Positions 8,657 through 20,241 of a stretch of DNA of 44,892 bases are shown here, piece after piece (the first letter of the stretch is position 1; each line of letters opens with the position of its first letter). Where the stretch lies: contig MWBJ01000002.1 in the NCBI GenBank assembly GCA_002069525.1, forward strand, positions 1-44,892, in the 5' to 3' direction. The notes below the pieces were generated by a model. It saw nothing but the letters and a program-made list of their open reading frames with translations. It did not search any database and was not told the DNA's origin. The position numbers were made by a program, and so were the translations under genes. Source of the DNA: Parcubacteria group bacterium ADurb.Bin305. GTDB taxonomy: Bacteria; Patescibacteriota; Minisyncoccia; UBA6257.

Positions 8657-9661
8657 TTAAAGCTGTAATAAAGATTTAACTGCCTCTTTTATTCCTTCTT
8701 TATCTAAACCATATTTAGCTATTAATTCCTCAGGGTTCCCGCTTTCCCCAAAAATATCTTGTAAACCAAGTCGTCGCACTAAAATTGGGTATTTCTCGCT
8801 CGTTAATTCCGCTATAGCGCCGCCCAAACCCCCATTAATTTGATGTTCTTCCACGGTCAAAAAAGCTTTTGATTTTTGCGCCCATTCTAAAATTAACCCT
8901 TCATCTAAAGGTTTAAGAGTAGAAATATTAATCACTGTGGTAAAAATCTTTTCTTCGGCTAATTCTTGAGCTGCTTGCAAAGCTTTAAAAACCAAATACC
9001 CACAAGTTAAAATAGACACCCCGCAAAAATGTTCATTTTTATTTTCATCTGGCAGCCAAAAAACACTAGCTTGCCCTATGGCAAAAGGACTATCCAAAGT
9101 AGTTAAGACAGGGGACTTTTCCCGACTTAACCTTAAATAAACAGAAACAGGATAATCTATGGCTGCTAAAATTGCTTTTCTAGCTTCTAAACTATCAGCC
9201 GGCGCTACTACAACTAAATTAGGCAATATTCGTGTTAAAGCCAGATCTTCTGTCATCTGATGCGACGCGCCATCAGGTCCCACATTTAAACCAGTATGAG
9301 AACCAACTAAAATAACCCTCTGCTGATTATAACAAATAGTGGTTCTGATTTGCTCCCAAGTTCTTCCCGGAGAAAATACTCCATAAGTGGCGGCTACTGG
9401 AATTTTTCCTGAAGCAGCCAAACCAGAAGCTACACCTATCATATTCTGTTCAGCAATACCAACTTCAATAAACCTCTCTGGAAATCTATCTCGAAATAAA
9501 TTCATTCTCACAGAATCAGTGACATCTGCACAAAGAGCTACAACATGGGAATTTTTTTCTCCAGCAATCACTAAACCCTCGCCAAAACCATCGCGAGTAG
9601 CTTGTTTTTCCACTTCTTTATCCCAGATATTAGGATTTAATTTAAGATTAGGATTTAACAT
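8657..9661 (-). CDS. transketolase C-terminal subunit (pyrimidine-binding plus C-terminal domains)
   Basis: FIEVGIAEQNMIGVASGLA and GPDGASHQMTEDLA motifs; length matches the C-terminal half of split transketolases. No gene for the N-terminal TPP-binding subunit is adjacent. Confidence 0.8.
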   Translation of the reverse strand: MLNPNLKLNPNIWDKEVEKQATRDGFGEGLVIAGEKNSHVVALCADVTDSVRMNLFRDRFPERFIEVGIAEQNMIGVASGLAASGKIPVAATYGVFSPGRTWEQIRTTICYNQQRVILVGSHTGLNVGPDGASHQMTEDLALTRILPNLVVVAPADSLEARKAILAAIDYPVSVYLRLSREKSPVLTTLDSPFAIGQASVFWLPDENKNEHFCGVSILTCGYLVFKALQAAQELAEEKIFTTVINISTLKPLDEGLILEWAQKSKAFLTVEEHQINGGLGGAIAELTSEKYPILVRRLGLQDIFGESGNPEELIAKYGLDKEGIKEAVKSLLQL

Positions 9662-9790
9662 ACAATTACTCTTCTCAACTATTTTTTCTTTTTTATCTTT
9701 ATTTTTATGGTAATTTTGTAGAGCTGGCTTTTAATAATTATATAATCTGATTAATTTAGTTTAACAAAAAATTGCCTCCAAAGCAAATAC

Positions 9791-9827
9791 TTAAGACCCA
9801 ACAGCACGTTATGCTGTTGGGTCTTAA
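9791..9827 (-). terminator. intrinsic terminator candidate after the Cys-rich protein gene
   Basis: Perfect 16-bp inverted repeat TTAAGACCCAACAGCA / TGCTGTTGGGTCTTAA with a 5-nt loop, 30 nt past the stop at 9857. On the minus strand it is followed by GUAUUUGCUUU. Confidence 0.6.
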
Positions 9828-9856
9828 TAAAAACAATAATAACTAATCTGAGAAGA

Positions 9857-14469: not shown

Positions 14470-15201
14470 TTAAGATAAAATTTTGTCTAAGTTTCCATCC
14501 AGCACATCTTCCACGCAAGAATATTTTTTACCAGTGCGCTCATCGCGTATCATTTTATACGGATGAAGAATATAAGAACGAATTTGATTACCCCATTCAA
14601 TTTTAACTTTCTCACCTTTCAATTCTTTTAAAGTTTTTACCTGCTGTTCTTCAGCCAACTTATGTAATTTTGACCTTAACACCATTAACGCTTTTTCTTT
14701 ATTCTGAGCTTGCGTTCTGTCTTCCTGAGAAGTCACCACTAAACCAGTTGGTTTATGCCGAACTCTAACCCCGGTTTCTACTTTCTGGACATTTTGACCT
14801 CCCGGACCTGAAGCTCTAAAGTAAGTAATTTCTAAATCTTCTTCAGAAAGAGGTAATTCTTTAAAACTAATTACCGGCAAAACTTCTACTAAGGCAAAAG
14901 AGGTATGACGTAATTTGGCAGCTGAAAATGGAGAAATACGCACTAACCGATGCACCCCATTTTCTTGCTTTAACAATCCATAAGCGCCTTGACCAGAAAT
15001 TTGACTAAGAGCTTTATTAAGACCACCCCTCGCATTAACTTGTTTTTCTATAAGTTGAAATTTTAGCCCCTTTTTTTCGCAAAAACGTTGGTACATTCTT
15101 AAAAGCATAGCCGCCCAATCTTCAGCATCTATCCCACCAGCTCCAGCATAAATTGAAAGTGTAGCCTCTCTCTCGTCGTAATTATTAGATTCTTTAATCA
15201 T
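14470..15201 (-). CDS. prfB: peptide chain release factor 2 lacking N-terminal domain 1 (243 aa)
   Basis: SPF tripeptide (RISPFSAAKLRHTSFA) and GGQ ([15 protein letters not shown]) are present. LSIYAGAGGIDAEDWA aligns with E. coli RF2 at about residue 125. The codon just 5' of the ATG is TAA. Confidence 0.8.
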   Translation of the reverse strand: MIKESNNYDEREATLSIYAGAGGIDAEDWAAMLLRMYQRFCEKKGLKFQLIEKQVNARGGLNKALSQISGQGAYGLLKQENGVHRLVRISPFSAAKLRHTSFALVEVLPVISFKELPLSEEDLEITYFRASGPGGQNVQKVETGVRVRHKPTGLVVTSQEDRTQAQNKEKALMVLRSKLHKLAEEQQVKTLKELKGEKVKIEWGNQIRSYILHPYKMIRDERTGKKYSCVEDVLDGNLDKILS

Positions 15202-15461
15202 TTATAAATCGTTAGCGCTTAAATTTAACCTGTATTTATCTTTATTTATCCTAATTAATATTTTAGCAAAAAATACTTTATTTAGCAACCCTCGTCCTCT
15301 AAAATATAAGTGAAATGGTATTTGATAGCATATTTAAATGTAAATGAAATAAAATCAGGTAAAACAGGAAAAATAGAATAATGGTCTCGAAAGACAAAAT
15401 CATAACCATAATTCTTAATTCTTGATTCTTAATTCATCGTTGGCTATTGGTCATTTATTAT

Positions 15462-15590
15462 GGATCACCCTGAACGAAGTGAAGGATCTCCTTGTTTTGG
15501 TTATTCTGAACGAAGCGAAGGATTTCTTTGTCCGGTCATCCTGAGCCGTAGGCGAAGGATTTTTATCCTGAGCCTAGTCGAAGGATCTCT
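15462..15590. repeat. four tandem degenerate copies of a short hairpin repeat (core TCCTGAxC...GAAGGATyT)
   Basis: Units at 15462-15490, 15501-15527, 15535-15564 and 15565-15590, each with ATCCT/AGGAT-type self-complementary ends. The array is followed by palindrome CTCGCGCATGCGAG. Confidence 0.7.
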
Positions 15591-15619
15591 CGCGCATGCG
15601 AGCTTCCTTTTAAAAGGTA

Positions 15620-15730
15620 TCTGAGACCAGATTAGAGATTCTTCAATTAACGACTTACGATGTCGTTAATTTATTTTTCAAGAAGTTTCTGAGACCAGCC
15701 CAGAGATTCTTCGCTCTACCCAGAATGACA
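15620..15730. repeat. two direct copies of TCTGAGACCAGnnnAGAGATTCTTC flanking a perfect 10-bp hairpin
   Basis: Copies at 15620-15644 and 15688-15712 (the second extends into GCTCTACCCAGAATGACA). The hairpin AATTAACGAC-ttacgat-GTCGTTAATT at 15645-15671 is followed by TATTTTT on the plus strand. Confidence 0.65.
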
Positions 15731-15773
15731 GAATTATCGAAAACAAAAGGCTGCTACTAGAAAACCCCTAGAT

Positions 15774-15808
15774 AAAAAAACCACCTTATCCATTACGATT
15801 TAAGGTGG
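15774..15808 (-). terminator. intrinsic terminator after the phosphatase-like gene
   Basis: CCACCTTA / TAAGGTGG stem with a 12-nt loop, 13 nt past the stop at 15821. Followed on the minus strand by a 7-U run (A7 at 15774-15780). Confidence 0.7.
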
Positions 15809-15820
15809 TTATTTTTAATC

Positions 15821-16423
15821 TTAAATATATTTGTCTAAGAATCGATTGTCTAGAACCTGTTCCAAAGACCATCGGTTTTTAATTTCTGGTCTGTTTCGAT
15901 AATTTTGTTCTATTTCTGCTGCCTTCTGGGGTTCATTTTTGAACCTACGCTGTATCTTTTTTATTACTATGCGCTCAAAATATTCTTCAGAAAATTTATG
16001 CGTAGTTCTATCATAACAATCCAAAATTTCTAAATTAATAATTTTATCTGATTTTTCACGCATTTGAGGAAATTTTCTAAACAATATTTCTAAACAATTA
16101 TCGTCCATAACAAAAACTTTATCAGCTTTATCAAGTAACGCCTCATCTATTACCCTATAACTGTTAGCTAAGACACCAGCGCTTTGCACTTCAGCTTGAA
16201 TATGTCTTTTTTCTAACAATTTTCGGAAATACTGCTCAGCGGTTGGGCTACGAGTTTTATTTTGAGCGCAGATAAATAAATATCTTTTTAGCGACGCGGA
16301 TTGATTAGTTTTCTTTAATGAGATATTTTCCAATACCTGTTCTGCGACATTTATTACCCAAAAGGCTAACAATAGCCAAGTTAAAAATAATATTAACCCA
16401 ATAATAATAAGACCTAAGTACAT
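15821..16423 (-). CDS. membrane-anchored low-molecular-weight phosphotyrosine phosphatase/ArsC-like protein
   Basis: N-terminal TM helix (LGLIIIGLILFLTWLLLAFWVI), then a C-x5-R-S P-loop in LFICAQNKTRSPTAEQYF, plus SAGV and VFVMDDN blocks colinear with LMW-PTPs. Confidence 0.65.
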   Translation of the reverse strand: MYLGLIIIGLILFLTWLLLAFWVINVAEQVLENISLKKTNQSASLKRYLFICAQNKTRSPTAEQYFRKLLEKRHIQAEVQSAGVLANSYRVIDEALLDKADKVFVMDDNCLEILFRKFPQMREKSDKIINLEILDCYDRTTHKFSEEYFERIVIKKIQRRFKNEPQKAAEIEQNYRNRPEIKNRWSLEQVLDNRFLDKYI

Positions 16424-16524
16424 CTTTCCCTCCTTTTTAATAAATTTTCAAAGAACGATTTAATTAAATCCTTAAACCTAAACAAATATTTAATATAAAT
16501 ATTTAATCTTGAAGGCCATAAATT

Positions 16525-17895
16525 TTAATAAAGATATTTAAGCATTTCGCTTTCTACGGTTTTAGGAAATAATTTTAATATAATTTCCCGTATTGTGTTT
16601 TGTTCATCTAGAGACGCCTCGGATAAAATATCCAAAAAAATATTATTTAAGGTCTTACGACAACGAGGACACTTTTTAGATCCAATTGAATGCAAATTAA
16701 CATTCTGGTCTTCAATTTTTCTAGCATAATCTTGACTTTCAATAATATTTACGATCGAATCCTGACAAGGAGAACCAGTAGCTAGCCAATAATTATCAGC
16801 TCTATTACCGCGTCTGAAAACACAGGGAGTAACGCTGCCTTGATGTATTATACCATCCGGATTAACTACTGGATGACAAACACAACGACTAAAATAATCT
16901 TCCTTTTCAGAACCAAAATTCAATCTATGATTAAAGGTTTTAATAATTATTTTATTACCAAACAACCTTTGCGCTTTCTTCATCTGCCTAAGACCTTCTT
17001 TAATATTAACCAAAGATTTATTACTAGTAATTACCGGCCTTAACCATAATTCATCAACCCCGCTTGCTGTTGCCCGCTTAGCCATTTCCACTATTTCTTT
17101 TTGATTAACAATGCTTACAGTCATCGCTATTACCACCAAAGGGAATCTCTTGCTTTTCCGACCAACCTTAATAATTCTTTTATTTTTATTTCGTAATCTT
17201 ATAATTTTGGTAATTTGCTCAAAAATGTAATCTACGCTGTTAAGTTCCCCCGGCATAACAGACTCTTGACTATGATGAATTGCATTATAAGTTTGATGGG
17301 TAGGAGCGCCAAGACTAAATTTTAAAATAGAAACATTATCCACAAAAACTTGAAGGGGTAAATTAGTTTGACCTAAAAGACCCCCATTAGTACTTAAATA
17401 GATGTCAAAACCATACTGATGCGTTACAGCTAAAACTTCAGCTAATTTAGGATAACAAATAGGTTCACCTCCGCCAGAATAAATAATAAATTTAATTTCT
17501 GGAATCTTAGAGAATTCTTTGAGATCCTTTTTGAGTTTTTGAAACGGATAATCATATCTTATTTTATTTAACCCTTCTTTGCAGAAAAAACAAGAATTAT
17601 TGCAATAAGTAGTTAAATCTAATTCTATTGTAGAAGGATAATAAAATTCATTATTTAGAGCTTTCGTAATTTCACTCTCCCAAAAATATCGCACCCATAA
17701 ACTAACGCTATTGGGATTACCAATTTCTAAAAGCTGAGATAATAAAGTCGTAAATCTAGTTCTTAGACCATTCAATTGTACACCTTTAACATTGACCAAC
17801 TTCTCATCAGAAAGCTTGTCTAACAAACCAATAATTTTCTTCTGCTCACAAGGCGATAAAAAAGTATTTTTTAATTGTGATGTAATGATTGTCAT
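16525..17895 (-). CDS. radical SAM enzyme with N-terminal extension and Cys-rich C-terminal region
   Basis: CxxxCxxC in DLTTYCNNSCFFCKEG, GGE SAM-binding motif YSGGGEPICYP, and C-terminal cysteines (CVCHP...TPCVF...CPRC) suggesting an auxiliary cluster domain. Confidence 0.8.
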   Translation of the reverse strand: MTIITSQLKNTFLSPCEQKKIIGLLDKLSDEKLVNVKGVQLNGLRTRFTTLLSQLLEIGNPNSVSLWVRYFWESEITKALNNEFYYPSTIELDLTTYCNNSCFFCKEGLNKIRYDYPFQKLKKDLKEFSKIPEIKFIIYSGGGEPICYPKLAEVLAVTHQYGFDIYLSTNGGLLGQTNLPLQVFVDNVSILKFSLGAPTHQTYNAIHHSQESVMPGELNSVDYIFEQITKIIRLRNKNKRIIKVGRKSKRFPLVVIAMTVSIVNQKEIVEMAKRATASGVDELWLRPVITSNKSLVNIKEGLRQMKKAQRLFGNKIIIKTFNHRLNFGSEKEDYFSRCVCHPVVNPDGIIHQGSVTPCVFRRGNRADNYWLATGSPCQDSIVNIIESQDYARKIEDQNVNLHSIGSKKCPRCRKTLNNIFLDILSEASLDEQNTIREIILKLFPKTVESEMLKYLY

Positions 17896-17981
17896 TTTTA
17901 TAGAAATTGAGAATGACTCCGGATATTACCATACCTTCTGTTCAAAAGTAGAGTATAGATCAAGGTTTTTACCTAGATATT

Positions 17982-19826
17982 TTAATAATAATATATTTTC
18001 GTAGCTAACTGAGGATATTTTTTCTGAAGAAATTCTACACTGAGACGATCCAGATTCTTAATATAAATAAAACCTCCTATTGATTCTGGTAAGGTAAGAC
18101 CTTGGGCAGAAGTAAGATTTCTAAGATAAAGAGAACCTCCTATTGATTCTGGTAAGGTAAGACCTTGGGCAGAGGTAAGACTACTAAGGTAAAGATTACC
18201 TCCTATTGATTTGGGTAAGGTAAGATCGTGGACAGAGGTAAGGCTATCAAGACTAAGATAGCCTCCTATTGATTCTGGTAAGGTAAGACCTTGGGCAGAG
18301 GTAAGACTACTAAGATCAAGATAGCCTCCTATTGATTCTGGTAAGGTAAGATCTTGGGCAGAGGTAAGACTACTAAGGTAAAGATTACCTTCTATTGATT
18401 TGGGGAAGGTAATATCTTGGGCCGAGGTAAGGCTATCAAGGCTAAGAGAACCTCCTATTGATTCTGGTAAGGTAAGACCTTGGGCAGAGGTAAGGTCACT
18501 AAGATCCAGATCGCCGTAGTGATAGATAATACCTCCTGCCAAAGCTTCTTCTTTAGTTAGACTAATTTCTTCTTCTTTACAACCTAAAACAAAAGCTAAA
18601 TCTGATTTAATATGGCGTTGCTGTCTGATTTCTTCTATTCTAGGATCTGCCTGCCAACCAAAACCCTCAATAGGAGAATCAATTTCATAAAGGAACCTTA
18701 GGTCTTCTTTAGTAAGCTCTAACCCTTGCTGATGTTTTTTCTCTATCTCAGTAAGGTATTTCATGTCTTGGCTCTTTTTTTGATACTTCTTTCCTTCTTC
18801 ACCAAATTCTTCAAGTTTTTTGGATAAAATATCAGTTTGAGCAATAATATGATCAAGATTCTGTTCATGAGCAATGCCTCTAATTTCTCCTATTCTATTA
18901 CAACCATCCATTCTGATAGCAATTCTAGGAACAGTGGGCTGACCATTTTGGTCGTAAGAATAGTAAACATAAAAATCACCTTGCTGAAGTTGATGTTGAG
19001 CAGTACTTTCTCCAGCAGTACACCAACCAGTAGACCAACCTTGTAAAGACTCAACTAAAGGAGTTGGGTCAGAACCCTGAGGATATTTTCTCCATTCTCC
19101 TTTAGTTTCTAAGAGTTCTTGTCCTTTAGTAGGGCCGACTTTTTCTAAAGCCCAAGCATAGAGTTTACCAAAATTAGCTTCTTTAAGAAGTTTCTTAAAC
19201 TCTGGATTATCCTCTTCTAAGGGAAGGTGTTCTTGGTTGGCTTTCTTAATAACAGCATCTAAGACATAGGCTAAAGCTTCTCTGTTTAAGTCAGGAAAAG
19301 GAGCTACAGTGGACTTATCTCGTTTAGCAAACATGTGCTTTTCTTTATCATAAACAGACAATTTAGTCATACCCTTAAAAGCCCAATATTTAGCCCACAT
19401 GGGGAAACTATCAGACAGAGGGGACAGAAAATAATCTAACCATAAATCTAAGGTTGCTTGTTGGTCTGCCCTGATAATTTCTGCAGCTTGCTGACGCATT
19501 TCTTGAGTAATTTCAATCTCTCCATAACCCTGCTCTCGAGCCAGTCTTCTTTGAGCCTCAAAATAACTATCAGGAATATCTTCTGGTTTGATAATATATT
19601 CCCGATGGTAGTATTCTTTGATTCTAGCTATTACTTCAGGATCATTCCGATGGCTTAAATGTGTTCTTTCTAACAGAGTCAGCCAATCAGTAATTTCCTT
19701 AGCTGGTTTCTGGGAGATTTCTACCCCTGATCTCTTTAATCTTTCTTGTTCATGCTGTACTGGTTCTGATTTATGAAGTTCTGGATTCTGTTTATGTAAA
19801 AATTGCCCTCCTGCATCTTCAAACAT
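17982..19826 (-). CDS. large hypothetical protein with seven C-terminal 21-aa leucine-rich-type repeats
   Basis: 614 aa with an unrecognised helical N-terminal region and a conserved-looking block GWSTGWCTAGESTAQHQLQQGDFYVYY...RIAIRMDGCNRIGEIRGIAHEQN. It ends in 7 repeats of L-x-SLTSAQGLTLPESIGGxLxL. Confidence 0.7.
   Translation of the reverse strand: MFEDAGGQFLHKQNPELHKSEPVQHEQERLKRSGVEISQKPAKEITDWLTLLERTHLSHRNDPEVIARIKEYYHREYIIKPEDIPDSYFEAQRRLAREQGYGEIEITQEMRQQAAEIIRADQQATLDLWLDYFLSPLSDSFPMWAKYWAFKGMTKLSVYDKEKHMFAKRDKSTVAPFPDLNREALAYVLDAVIKKANQEHLPLEEDNPEFKKLLKEANFGKLYAWALEKVGPTKGQELLETKGEWRKYPQGSDPTPLVESLQGWSTGWCTAGESTAQHQLQQGDFYVYYSYDQNGQPTVPRIAIRMDGCNRIGEIRGIAHEQNLDHIIAQTDILSKKLEEFGEEGKKYQKKSQDMKYLTEIEKKHQQGLELTKEDLRFLYEIDSPIEGFGWQADPRIEEIRQQRHIKSDLAFVLGCKEEEISLTKEEALAGGIIYHYGDLDLSDLTSAQGLTLPESIGGSLSLDSLTSAQDITFPKSIEGNLYLSSLTSAQDLTLPESIGGYLDLSSLTSAQGLTLPESIGGYLSLDSLTSVHDLTLPKSIGGNLYLSSLTSAQGLTLPESIGGSLYLRNLTSAQGLTLPESIGGFIYIKNLDRLSVEFLQKKYPQLATKIYYY
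18063..18509 (-). repeat. seven tandem 63-bp coding repeats
   Basis: The string CCTCCTATTGATTCTGGTAAGGTAAGACCTTGGGCAGAGGTAAG recurs with few substitutions at 63-bp spacing inside the 3' end of the 614-aa gene. Confidence 0.85.
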
Positions 19827-19853
19827 CTTTTTAAATATTTATTACTTTAAAAC

Positions 19854-19882
19854 ATTATACCACACAATTCTAATAACGTCTA
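19854..19882 (-). promoter_or_regulatory. promoter for the 614-aa gene (TAGACG, 17-nt spacer, TGgTATAAT)
   Basis: Minus-strand TATAAT at 19854-19859 with an extended -10 TG, and a -35-like TAGACG at 19877-19882; the ATG at 19826 lies about 28 nt downstream. Confidence 0.5.
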
Positions 19883-19924: not shown

Positions 19925-20100
19925 TCATCTTACGTGATTTGAAGTAGGAGCGGCAAGGGTTAATTACCAAGAATTTGCTAAATAGTGAATTTTCGCGACC
20001 CCGGCTCGCGGCGCTCGCCTGTCGCCTTTGGCGCCAACTCGCGCATCGCTGCGCCTTTCTCACCCTGACGCAAATCAAGCAGTTGATTTGCTCCACCCCT
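19925..20100 (-). ncRNA. candidate structured ncRNA of unknown class (G+C-rich island)
   Basis: A sharp G+C island in an AT-rich spacer next to tRNA-Trp. Perfect hairpins at 20070-20091, 20041-20054 (GCGA loop in minus sense) and 19994-20010. The only ORF is a 61-aa Arg/Ala/Ser-rich artefact. Confidence 0.35.
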
Positions 20101-20168
20101 TAAAAGCTATCAACAAATAAATTTATCTCTTAAAATTAAAAACTGAAGCTTTGACATCTTACAACCAG

Positions 20169-20241
20169 CAGGGGCGGCAGGGCTCGAACCTGCAACCAAC
20201 GGTTTTGGAGACCGCTACTCTACCAATTGAGCTACGCCCCT
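20169..20241 (-). tRNA. tRNA-Trp (anticodon CCA), 3' CCA not encoded
   Basis: AGGGGCG TA GCTC-AATTGGTA-GAGT; anticodon stem GCGGT/ACCGT with loop CTCCAAA; T-arm GCAGG-TTCGAGC-CCTGC; acceptor CGCCCCT-G. Confidence 0.9.

Follow-up and report, generated by a model that had tools for sequence, protein, structure and literature searches.

A rare radical SAM gene and a phosphatase-like gene, a possible accessory pair, beside a repeat-protein gene of a very large CPR family

The DNA analysed here (the window: 44,892 nt, contig MWBJ01000002.1 of Parcubacteria group bacterium ADurb.Bin305) carries three consecutive minus-strand genes that encode a 614-aa repeat protein (17982-19826), a 456-aa radical SAM (rSAM) enzyme (16525-17895) and a 200-aa phosphatase-like protein (15821-16423). 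An earlier note on this sequence had described these three ORFs with gaps of 86 and 101 nt, and the ORF coordinates bear this out; the flanks it named were also located, tRNA-Trp at 20168-20241 and, downstream of the trio, prfB, ftsE and ftsX. Read by eye, the 86 nt that separate the repeat gene from the rSAM gene (17896..17981, minus strand) contain a TGgTAATAT extended -10-like element but neither a terminator nor a Shine-Dalgarno sequence; this spacer is 100% conserved across same-species loci. The 101-nt spacer between the rSAM gene and the phosphatase-like gene (16424..16524, minus strand) carries an AAGGAGG ribosome-binding site ahead of the latter and no terminator hairpin. Co-orientation and short gaps are uninformative for this trio, because 35 of the 40 ORFs in the window lie on the minus strand and 20 of the 30 same-strand gaps (median 77 nt) are 101 nt or shorter. 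All three genes agree with the host genome in GC and GC3, and no conserved riboswitch was found.

The trio had been described as bounded by an extended -10 promoter and a clean intrinsic terminator. A promoter-like site, TAGACG-17-TGgTATAAT (19854..19882, minus strand; 10/12 matches plus the TG), does lie 27 nt upstream of the repeat-gene ATG. However, the scan returned 26 such sites and the shuffles 18.1 +/- 4.9, i.e. no enrichment, and both the interior of the rSAM gene (17312-17284) and the 3' end of the phosphatase-like gene hold equally good matches, so that a promoter at this position is plausible but unproven. The terminator is firmer: a 10-bp GC-containing stem, loop and U7 (about 15774..15810, minus strand, by folding) has a predicted energy of -18.2 kcal/mol (z = -4.15), which none of 200 shuffles equalled. 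Between the three genes no convincing internal terminator was found, in agreement with the first reading. Contigs labelled ‘RNA?’, from one library and of uncertain RNA status, span both gaps (17793-18116 across the 86-nt gap and 16345-16563 across the 101-nt gap, one contig each) and also cross the promoter-like site from the tRNA-Trp side; true metatranscriptomes yielded, for the trio, short within-gene pieces only. Co-transcription is possible, and therefore so is some functional coupling with the repeat protein.

The 614-aa gene represents, in this species, a very large uncharacterised protein family of the ultra-small CPR (Patescibacteria) bacteria, in which at least 3,974 members were counted. 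Its conserved N-terminal domain (the head; about 440 aa, with invariant W268-C269, D284, R301, R305 and Q322-N323) leads into seven 21-aa units that are LRR-like or FNIP-like, and the protein ends in a 24-aa tail. The seven repeats, already recognized in the earlier note, are encoded by a tandem array at 18052..18505 (minus strand; period 63 nt, 7.2 copies, 83% matches) and are spaced exactly 21 residues apart. Unit number is 7 here vs 12 and 16 in near-identical strains, and variation falls mostly at unit positions 16, 18 and 20 (entropy 2.4, 1.25 and 2.3 bits); both copy number and the repeat positions predicted to be exposed diversify between strains. As in LRR and FNIP proteins, the leucine-rich units are predicted to form a solenoid with two strands per turn, the variation lying at alternating strand positions, but LRR Pfam matches are weak (LRR_14 in 6 of 30 family members). 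FNIP-repeat and ‘PcfJ-like’ viral proteins were weak fold matches, and no PDB fold matched the model (pLDDT 86; best E = 0.5). Over the head, no Pfam family was found in 30 members; its core matches a segment of 2,796-3,010-aa proteins on IMG/VR viral contigs (38% identity over 115 aa), and GenBank phage records gave no matches. The head is probably an enzymatic or binding domain, to which the 21-aa LRR-like repeats add a variable solenoid.

The rSAM enzyme matches Pfam Radical_SAM at 37.5 bits (cut-off 29.5) over residues 94-273. As the earlier note had seen, it has an N-terminal extension, here a family-specific domain of about 90 aa, and extra cysteines: a CX3CX2C core (C98-x3-C102-x2-C105) with a GGGEP motif is followed by a twitch-like C-terminus, C338-X14-G353-X4-C358 ... 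C409-X2-C412, and all of these cysteines are invariant. The first half of the SPASM motif is CX9-15GX4C and the twitch domain of BtrN uses four ligands (PMC6231123). On these definitions the C-terminal CX14GX4C...CX2C, first-half SPASM plus CX2C, fits a twitch domain with four ligands, as in BtrN, for one auxiliary cluster. With BtrN, MoaA and related small-molecule enzymes the rSAM also shares a CX3CX2C SAM cluster and partial TIM barrel. Judged from its sequence the enzyme is of the twitch type, with a single SAM cluster plus an auxiliary Fe-S cluster whose predicted ligands are the four invariant C-terminal cysteines. Foldseek on its model (pLDDT 78.6) returned SkfB, DesII, BlsE, GDGT-MAS, MoaA and viperin, and also CteB and SuiB; DesII, BlsE and MoaA are among the best fold matches, and BtrN was absent from the top 50. 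In contrast to the small-molecule enzymes BtrN, MoaA, DesII and BlsE, the rSAM here has a unique, strongly conserved N-terminal domain and a helical C-terminal extension past CX2C, and it lacks sequence membership, all curated models scoring far under cut-off. It has no curated equivalog (best TIGR04317, 69.7 bits vs a cut-off of 380) and forms an isolated clade, in keeping with the earlier view that it has no obvious housekeeping role. It is also rare: only 2 representatives among 1.84 billion clusters reach E<=1e-30, the clusters total about 10, one locus was found among 185,579 species genomes, and none was found in viral contigs.

The best Foldseek match, SkfB (E = 8e-11, TM 0.48-0.57), is a RiPP maturase, an observation that speaks against a small-molecule substrate, and many members of the SPASM/twitch class modify peptides. 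The rSAM could accordingly mature a peptide or protein, in the manner of a RiPP or metalloenzyme maturase, with its substrate encoded elsewhere in the genome and the phosphatase-like gene either unrelated or regulating by protein dephosphorylation. TIGR04317, the nearest curated family, is a putative tungsten-enzyme maturase, and SkfB, CteB and SuiB align over their full length and have the same three parts as the rSAM: a dedicated N-terminal domain, an rSAM core and a Cys-rich C-terminus. However, the TIGR04317 score is less than a fifth of its cut-off, and the N-terminal domain, raised earlier as a possible RRE-like winged helix, has a predicted helix-helix-hairpin-helix-helix topology, whereas the RRE fold comprises three strands and then three helices (PMC6231123). 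No PqqD/RRE family matched any of seven rSAM N-terminal domains at E<=10, and this domain is most conserved at Arg, Asn, Trp and Tyr residues, whereas leader-binding RREs are only weakly conserved. In addition, no small ORF or precursor peptide common to the rSAM lineages was found, no peptidase or transporter occurs among the rSAM neighbours, no precursor, protease or exporter adjoins the gene, and the neighbours that do occur are sugar or phosphate enzymes. The rSAM locus lacks the hallmarks of a RiPP system, and we consider it unlikely that the enzyme is a maturase of either kind.

The 200-aa protein had been read as a C-x5-R phosphatase-like protein with an N-terminal membrane helix, and both features hold. 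Pfam LMWPc matches at 38.5 bits (cut-off 23.2), but over residues 49-85 only; an alignment of the model to only 37 residues speaks against the two-step reading that is preferred below. Like LMW-PTP and ArsC proteins, it has a C-X5-R-S-P P-loop with Asn at +3 (C52-A-Q-N-K-T-R58-S), and it shares with LMW-PTPs an ‘MDD...L’ motif and, by phmmer against PDB, an ‘ILDCYD’ segment aligned with the DPYY general-acid loop of T. thermophilus 2cwd, which makes D134 the putative general acid. The fold is minimal: about 25 residues of LMW-PTP/ArsC are missing between the P-loop helix and the MD motif, and the protein adds a transmembrane helix at residues 1-25 (strong hydrophobicity, with a 19-residue Kyte-Doolittle mean of 2.6) and, at its C-terminus, a tail of about 55 aa that is specific to the family. 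The usual substrates of enzymes with this fold are phosphotyrosine, phosphoarginine or arsenate rather than sugar phosphates, which also speaks against that reading. The protein matches the rSAM in rarity (a word-indexed search gave 2 clusters in 5.8 billion) and, in the data available, occurs only adjoining it.

Gene neighbourhoods (tblastn with the three proteins, 25 loci) bear on the proposal, made in the earlier note, that the trio is a protein-modification or surface-protein maturation module. In such a module, encoded by one operon, the rSAM would modify the 21-aa repeats or mature the 614-aa protein for the surface, assisted or regulated by the phosphatase. Some rSAM maturases typically act on repeated motifs, SkfB is the top fold match, and the single promoter-like site, the single strong terminator, the lack of an internal one and the ‘RNA?’ contigs of uncertain status all count in its favour, as does the constant adjacency of the trio, with spacers 100% identical, in every strain of the species. 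However, the complete trio was found only in these near-identical strains (rSAM >=98% identical). Three repeat-protein relatives with N-terminal domains 61-74% identical lie in other contexts with neither an rSAM nor a phosphatase gene, no repeat protein lies near the rSAM relatives at 45-63% identity, and about 10 rSAM clusters compare with 3,974 or more members of the repeat family. The repeat protein also lacks a signal peptide or any hydrophobic or transmembrane segment (maximum KD19 0.81), RRE families are absent, and co-orientation and gap sizes match the window background. The data do not support a three-gene maturation module, which we regard as very improbable.

What recurs outside the species is the pair alone: in one further lineage (L010) an rSAM gene (78% identity) is followed by a phosphatase-like gene (59%) and then prfB, whereas in five more distant rSAM lineages neither partner occurs within the sequence available. 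The repeat gene's place upstream of prfB-ftsEX would be explained by inherited gene order; in the relative with the 74% identical N-terminal domain (P0020) the order is repeat protein, polysaccharide deacetylase, Asp/Glu racemase, prfB, ftsE, ftsX, without the rSAM or phosphatase-like gene. An rSAM homologue, P0004, lies on the opposite side of the same prfB-ftsEX backbone, in reverse orientation, adjoining a GalE/TviC-like (UDP-sugar) epimerase. Elsewhere the rSAM gene is followed by GlmS (L005), adjoins an SDR (L028) or, in L026, is preceded by a divergent TrmB-like sugar-sensing regulator and followed after 131 nt by a co-oriented IMPase/HisN/FBPase-family phosphatase unrelated to the LMW-PTP-like protein. 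These neighbours suggest a small-molecule, phosphate-related theme and count as a likeness to small-molecule rSAM enzymes. The substrate class is nevertheless insecure, because it is drawn from gene neighbourhood, and adjacent genes in compact genomes often have nothing to do with each other; a downstream phosphatase is present in only 2 of about 8 independent rSAM lineages.

The three genes could also be functionally independent in a compact genome, the phosphatase-like protein being an ordinary membrane-associated protein phosphatase or an arsenate-reductase-like enzyme. The pair occurs in two closely related lineages only, both with prfB downstream, so shared ancestry alone could explain the pairing; the genome is coded almost uni-directionally, and the LMW-PTP catalytic residues are intact. 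Against independence stand the phosphatase of an unrelated family that lies independently downstream of the rSAM in L026 and a partner that equals the rSAM in rarity and is found only beside it. We judge full independence somewhat unlikely.

The explanation that we tentatively prefer is that the rSAM and phosphatase-like genes may function together as a small accessory unit, inserted between the repeat gene and prfB. From the observed gene structures, motifs, rarity, gene contexts and absence of RiPP hallmarks, we infer a substrate class, an order of two steps and a topology. By way of a 5'-deoxyadenosyl radical the rSAM would convert a phosphorylated small molecule (for instance a nucleotide, a nucleotide-sugar, or the phosphate of a sugar or cyclitol), held by the enzyme's many invariant Arg/Lys residues, among them R45, R47 and R69 in the N-terminal domain, and the membrane-tethered LMW-PTP-fold enzyme, its catalytic domain cytoplasmic, would strip phosphate from the product or a precursor. 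PolJ-type phosphatases are of the low-molecular-weight PTP type. In octosyl acid biosynthesis experiments show that the rSAM enzyme PolH acts on a nucleoside 5'-monophosphate and that a dedicated phosphatase, PolJ, then dephosphorylates (PMC5365060), and this logic of the polyoxin/nikkomycin pathways (PolH/PolJ, NikJ/NikL) resembles the one proposed here, by description and not by sequence. However, the enolpyruvyl transferase and dioxygenases of that pathway are absent at the locus, its host is an actinomycete rather than a CPR bacterium, and the phosphatase here is membrane-anchored. The repeat protein would be an unrelated neighbour held in place by prfB-ftsEX synteny. Our working hypothesis is therefore that the locus may be a juxtaposition, and not a three-gene machine: a member of a very large CPR repeat-protein family beside an accessory rSAM/phosphatase unit that would act on a phosphorylated small molecule.

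The earlier note had read three minus-strand genes of the window as a single co-oriented module for protein modification or surface-protein maturation, an interpretation that our analysis partly supports, for the pair formed by the radical SAM protein (rSAM) and the membrane-anchored LMW-phosphatase-like protein (LMWP) only. The three ORFs are present as described, encoding a repeat protein of 614 aa (17982-19826), rSAM of 456 aa (16525-17895) and LMWP of 200 aa (15821-16423); 86 and 101 nt separate them. Across the whole window, the minus strand carries 35 of the 40 ORFs that reach 120 aa, same-strand neighbours are separated by a median of 77 nt and the cumulative GC skew drops steadily along the region, which fits a single replichore with genes co-oriented nearly throughout; the shared orientation and short gaps of the three genes are therefore no evidence of an operon, and carry little meaning in a genome coded almost wholly on one strand. 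Near-identical loci of the same species are found in MAGs labelled Candidatus Pacebacteria/Paceibacterota (CPR, Patescibacteria) and also in many anaerobic-digester, wastewater, landfill and groundwater metagenomes, and strains keep an invariant order of repeat protein, rSAM, LMWP, prfB, ftsE and ftsX. When gene contexts were tabulated and confirmed by tblastn with the three proteins against all loci, the triple proved to be confined to this one species. The rSAM and LMWP pair recurs in one further lineage, on contig L010, where rSAM (78% identical) is followed by LMWP (59%) and prfB and the contig stops within the rSAM gene, short of any upstream neighbour. A repeat-protein relative whose head is 74% identical (P0020) is encoded upstream of polysaccharide deacetylase, racemase and prfB-ftsEX genes without rSAM or LMWP, and other relatives adjoin mazG or lie between dnaB and a beta-CASP nuclease gene. 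What is conserved is the prfB-ftsEX backbone, with the repeat-protein gene long established upstream of it; rSAM, with or without LMWP, is an accessory insertion of variable position.

Transcript boundaries were considered separately. The intrinsic terminator claimed downstream of LMWP is convincing (-18.2 kcal/mol, z = -4.15). The extended -10 promoter claimed upstream of the repeat-protein gene does exist at 19882-19854 and was among the four best sites of our scan, but sites of this kind are not enriched in the window (26 vs 18.1 +/- 4.9 in shuffles). Promoter-like sites of equal quality also occur inside genes, one of them a 10/12 match within the rSAM gene (17284-17312, minus strand). We also observed a TGgTAATAT extended -10-like element (17905-17925, minus strand) 20-30 nt 5' of the rSAM start codon, which lacks a Shine-Dalgarno sequence. 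Either this element or the intragenic match could give the rSAM-LMWP pair a transcript of its own. Contigs from run X25, a library labelled 'METAGENOMIC RNA-Seq' with source 'metagenomic' that may hold DNA, span both intergenic gaps and also cross the promoter-like site, coming from the tRNA-Trp side. Four true metatranscriptomes yielded short intragenic pieces only, at low depth, with pieces of the repeat-protein gene in all four, and pieces of the rSAM gene were present in two others; the repeat-protein gene is transcribed in situ.

Several features of the flanking DNA deserve mention in their own right. A GC island (19950-20095, minus strand; 55.5% GC vs 33% for the genome) lies in the interval from tRNA-Trp (20168-20241) to the repeat-protein gene. 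It is 98.9% conserved among same-species loci and covered by contigs from two RNA-labelled libraries; Rfam yielded nothing for it at E<=1, and it folds no better than its shuffles (z = -0.46). The island could represent a small RNA missing from the annotation or a remnant linked to the tRNA. On the other side, a 619-nt spacer (15202-15820; 619 vs 645 nt among strains) separates the LMWP terminator from prfB and contains direct repeats of 37 nt (two copies, at 15608 and 15676) and 26 nt (two copies, at 15470 and 15506), all potentially able to form hairpins. Part of this spacer (15557-15782) is represented by metatranscriptome contigs at greater depth than the adjoining genes, and the spacer had no match in Rfam. 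The adjacent RF2-like gene (14470-15201, minus strand) encodes only 243 aa, with SPF and GGQ motifs present; its product matches Pfam PCRF only from model position 94 on, a stop codon immediately precedes the ATG, and no upstream ORF supplies domain 1. Relatives at loci L001, L022 and L010 share the short form (243-247 aa), and the gene may encode a release factor 2 that is N-terminally truncated lineage-wide.

The assignment of rSAM to the radical SAM superfamily was confirmed by Pfam PF04055 (Radical_SAM; 37.5 bits vs a gathering cut-off of 29.5), and both the CX3CX2C cysteines (C98, C102 and C105) and the glycine-rich SAM-binding motif G141-G142-G143-(E)-P145 (GGGEP) are invariant across ten family members. 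The extra C-terminal cysteines remarked on in the earlier note (C338, C358, C409 and C412) are likewise invariant in the ten homologues, in the pattern C338-X14-G353-X4-C358 ... C409-X2-C412. A SPASM domain binds two auxiliary clusters through seven cysteines in the motif CX9-15GX4C-gap-CX2CX5CX3C-gap-C; the twitch domain is a shortened SPASM with three to four cysteines around a beta-hairpin and one auxiliary cluster, which in BtrN is fully ligated by four ligands (PMC6231123). In rSAM the first half of the SPASM motif and the CX2C are conserved and no more, and a full SPASM domain was rejected (CX5CX3C absent; Pfam SPASM 16.2 bits vs a cut-off of 21.5). The cysteine pattern fits a predicted twitch domain with four potential ligands, as many as BtrN uses. 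In the AlphaFold model (pLDDT 78.6, pTM 0.83), strands 342-345 and 354-357 fall within a low-confidence stretch (341-375, pLDDT below 50), and the best PDB matches are SkfB, DesII, BlsE, GDGT-MAS, CteB, MoaA, SuiB and viperin, which are those of the SPASM/twitch neighbourhood generally. A PDB sequence search gave matches limited to the core.

None of the curated families to which rSAM was compared was matched. The best curated score, to the tungsten-cofactor oxidoreductase radical SAM maturase family TIGR04317, was 69.7 bits vs 380 needed, over residues 90-309 only; the nearest sequence-space neighbours of rSAM likewise reach only about 100 bits with this model, and the closest proteins outside the family are also without family assignment. 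Prokaryotic viperin was rejected (NCBIfam 37.6 bits vs a cut-off of 180; PADLOC pVip 45 bits, core only), as was viperin-like or MoaA-like membership in general, with scores far under the cut-offs; we take these matches as a pointer that the rSAM core resembles nucleotide-binding radical SAM enzymes. A phage or defence origin was also set aside: PHROGs and PADLOC matched the generic radical SAM core only, and IMG/VR held no relative. The family is small. Ten clusters lie at 44-100% identity, beyond which matches are generic (25%); LMWP forms two clusters, and at least 3,974 proteins are significantly related to the repeat protein. An exhaustive HMMER search of 1.84 billion representatives with the rSAM family profile returned two proteins at E<=1e-30 and one N-terminal fragment, the next match scoring 102 bits, and in pattern scans a single locus turned up among 185,579 species genomes and three in JGI metagenomes, with none in IMG/VR. 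By these comparisons rSAM is a new, very rare subfamily within a known superfamily.

The N-terminal domain of rSAM is strikingly conserved (G43, R45, R47, N62, S63, W67, R69, Y70 and W72), and numerous other Arg and Lys residues are invariant. The earlier note had asked whether this extension has a winged helix of the RRE type, which consists of three strands and three helices (PMC6231123). None was indicated, as searches with seven N-terminal domains found no PqqD/RRE family at E<=10 and the predicted topology is helix-helix-hairpin-helix-helix. Some homologues carry 25-40 additional N-terminal residues, and a degenerate or truncated winged helix is therefore possible. When the 221 small ORFs lying within 900 nt of the rSAM gene at 10 loci were compared all against all, no shared precursor peptide emerged. 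Rfam searches (E<=0.01) of nine loci gave tRNAs and one tmRNA end but no riboswitch or leader upstream of the rSAM genes, and in the window Rfam matched tRNAs only.

LMWP passes the Pfam LMWPc threshold (38.5 bits vs a cut-off of 23.2), though the match covers residues 49-85 only (model positions 2-40 of 144). The C-x5-R motif noted before is a P-loop, C52-AQNKT-R58-S59-P, conserved in the homologue P0140, and D134 ('ILDCYD') aligns, in a weak second HMMER segment, with the DPYY general acid of the T. thermophilus LMW-PTP 2cwd. From the P-loop and this alignment, the catalytic trio seems intact within a shortened fold, which is followed by a family-specific tail of about 55 residues. The proposed membrane tether is upheld by a strongly hydrophobic stretch of 25 residues at the N-terminus. 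With four Lys/Arg vs two acidic residues after the transmembrane helix, the positive-inside rule would place the catalytic domain on the cytoplasmic side. In P0140 the anchor is longer and apparently two-helix, whereas the soluble domain is the same.

The neighbours of more distant rSAM genes differ from locus to locus. The 63% identical homologue has a DUF5684 gene on one side and a tRNA gene and an HTH/transposase-like gene on the other; the 48% homologue (P0004) lies beyond ftsX in reverse orientation, flanked by genes for a GalE/TviC-like epimerase and a rubredoxin; the 47% homologue, from Peribacteria, adjoins SLH and sortase genes and a RelB/YafQ pair; and the 45% homologue is followed by glmS. 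Among other distant homologues, an AbiEii gene precedes P0005, P0006 has a divergent TrmB-like regulator on one flank and an IMPase/HisN/FBPase-family phosphatase downstream, and P0008 lies between an SDR gene and mscL. Homologues at L006 (302-1031), L027 (46-1112) and L004 (5242-5777) were observed to adjoin tRNA genes, an HTH/transposase-like gene, AbiEii and a RelB/YafQ pair. These neighbourhoods suggest variable island-like regions and patchy spread via horizontal transfer. Transfer judged from composition was rejected for the three genes, whose GC and GC3 resemble the host genome.

Genes for the handling of sugars or sugar phosphates (GlmS, epimerase, SDR, TrmB-like regulator) thus recur beside rSAM, and two unrelated phosphatase families occur independently just downstream of it. 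Taken with the invariant basic residues of rSAM, these neighbours are more easily reconciled with a small anionic substrate than with a peptide. Our current working hypothesis is that rSAM would transform such a substrate and that the partner phosphatase would act alongside it to remove phosphate. A comparable order of steps is known for PolH/PolJ, in which a radical SAM enzyme converts a nucleoside monophosphate and a phosphatase then takes the phosphate off (PMC5365060); the literature on CPR, radical SAM and LRR proteins offered nothing specific beyond this precedent. A small-molecule role for rSAM beside a partner phosphatase is plausible. We give the PolH/PolJ-like scheme somewhat less than an even chance, because neighbourhood evidence is weak in compact CPR genomes and the SPASM/twitch class is rich in peptide maturases. 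It could be argued instead that in this lineage rSAM has taken on the 21-aa repeats of the adjacent head-plus-solenoid protein as its substrate, modifying one site per repeat under the control of the membrane-anchored phosphatase. Such a system would be a radical SAM maturation pathway acting on a large protein of variable repeats instead of a short peptide. We consider this reading very improbable, but it is compatible with the invariance of the trio within the species, with the L010 contig stopping short of whatever gene lies upstream of rSAM, and with the possibility that repeat-protein genes sit elsewhere in other rSAM-bearing genomes, such as GCA_029564315.1 and the Peribacteria MAG of L017.

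The repeats themselves are as reported: Tandem Repeats Finder gave a 63-nt unit in 7.2 copies (18052-18505), corresponding to seven protein units at exact 21-residue spacing. The model (pLDDT 86.2) comprises a helical/beta head (1-430) and a solenoid (pLDDT 85-94), with no PDB fold match (best E = 0.5; the sole LRR entry among the matches, E = 7.9) and nothing significant in a PDB sequence search. In BFVD the fold matched a single uncharacterised phage protein (1e-5) and, weakly, 'PcfJ-like' and FNIP-repeat proteins. No Pfam family matched the head in 30 members, the scattered matches all falling on the repeats; LRR_14 matched six of the 30 (best E = 1e-4), the window protein not among them. 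PcfJ-like or LPD identity of the head was rejected, with no Pfam match in the 30 members or the viral-contig proteins; GenBank phages gave no match to the head, and a term search of the polyvalent-protein paper gave none either. The head core (residues 212-324; invariant W268-C269, G283-D284, R301 and R305) shares 38% identity with a stretch within IMG/VR proteins of 2,796-3,010 aa. On viral-classed contigs (L030, 1687-10077; L031, 1369-10401; L032, 21-5099), giant ORFs, 1,692 to 3,010 aa long, carry this CPR head core mid-protein (WCT...GDFY[IV]YYS...A[IV]RMNG...GEIRG), with no Pfam domain in their scanned parts. A 679-aa homologue at L029 (6004-8043; head 45% identical) has a different, non-repeat C-terminal domain and adjoins a reverse-transcriptase-like ORF (8804-9835) with a (DRQT)n run. 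The surface location entertained earlier receives no indication from the sequence, which contains neither a signal peptide nor a hydrophobic segment. Repeat number differs among strains with 99.8% identical heads (7, 12 and 16 units, counted in short-read assemblies, which can collapse or distort arrays), and variation among units is concentrated at positions 16, 18 and 20, alternating along one strand, the pattern expected for a diversifying binding surface. The protein belongs to a large and as yet uncharacterised family of CPR proteins.

Biosynthetic enzymes are very few in the tiny genomes of CPR bacteria. If such bacteria carry an accessory radical SAM enzyme that is limited to about ten lineages and is paired, in different lineages, with two unrelated phosphatases, a specialised metabolite would be indicated; candidates would be a modified sugar, cyclitol or nucleoside that serves the cell envelope or acts against the host or competitors. 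Since no relative has been characterised and the family possesses a conserved N-terminal domain of its own, working out its reaction would add a chemistry or a substrate new to radical SAM enzymes. The repeat protein is worth attention in its own right, standing for thousands of CPR proteins without a Pfam domain or solved fold relative; with its strain-variable solenoid, and a head core that also occurs inside giant viral-contig proteins, it qualifies as a good candidate factor in the interaction of episymbiotic bacteria with a host or with phages.
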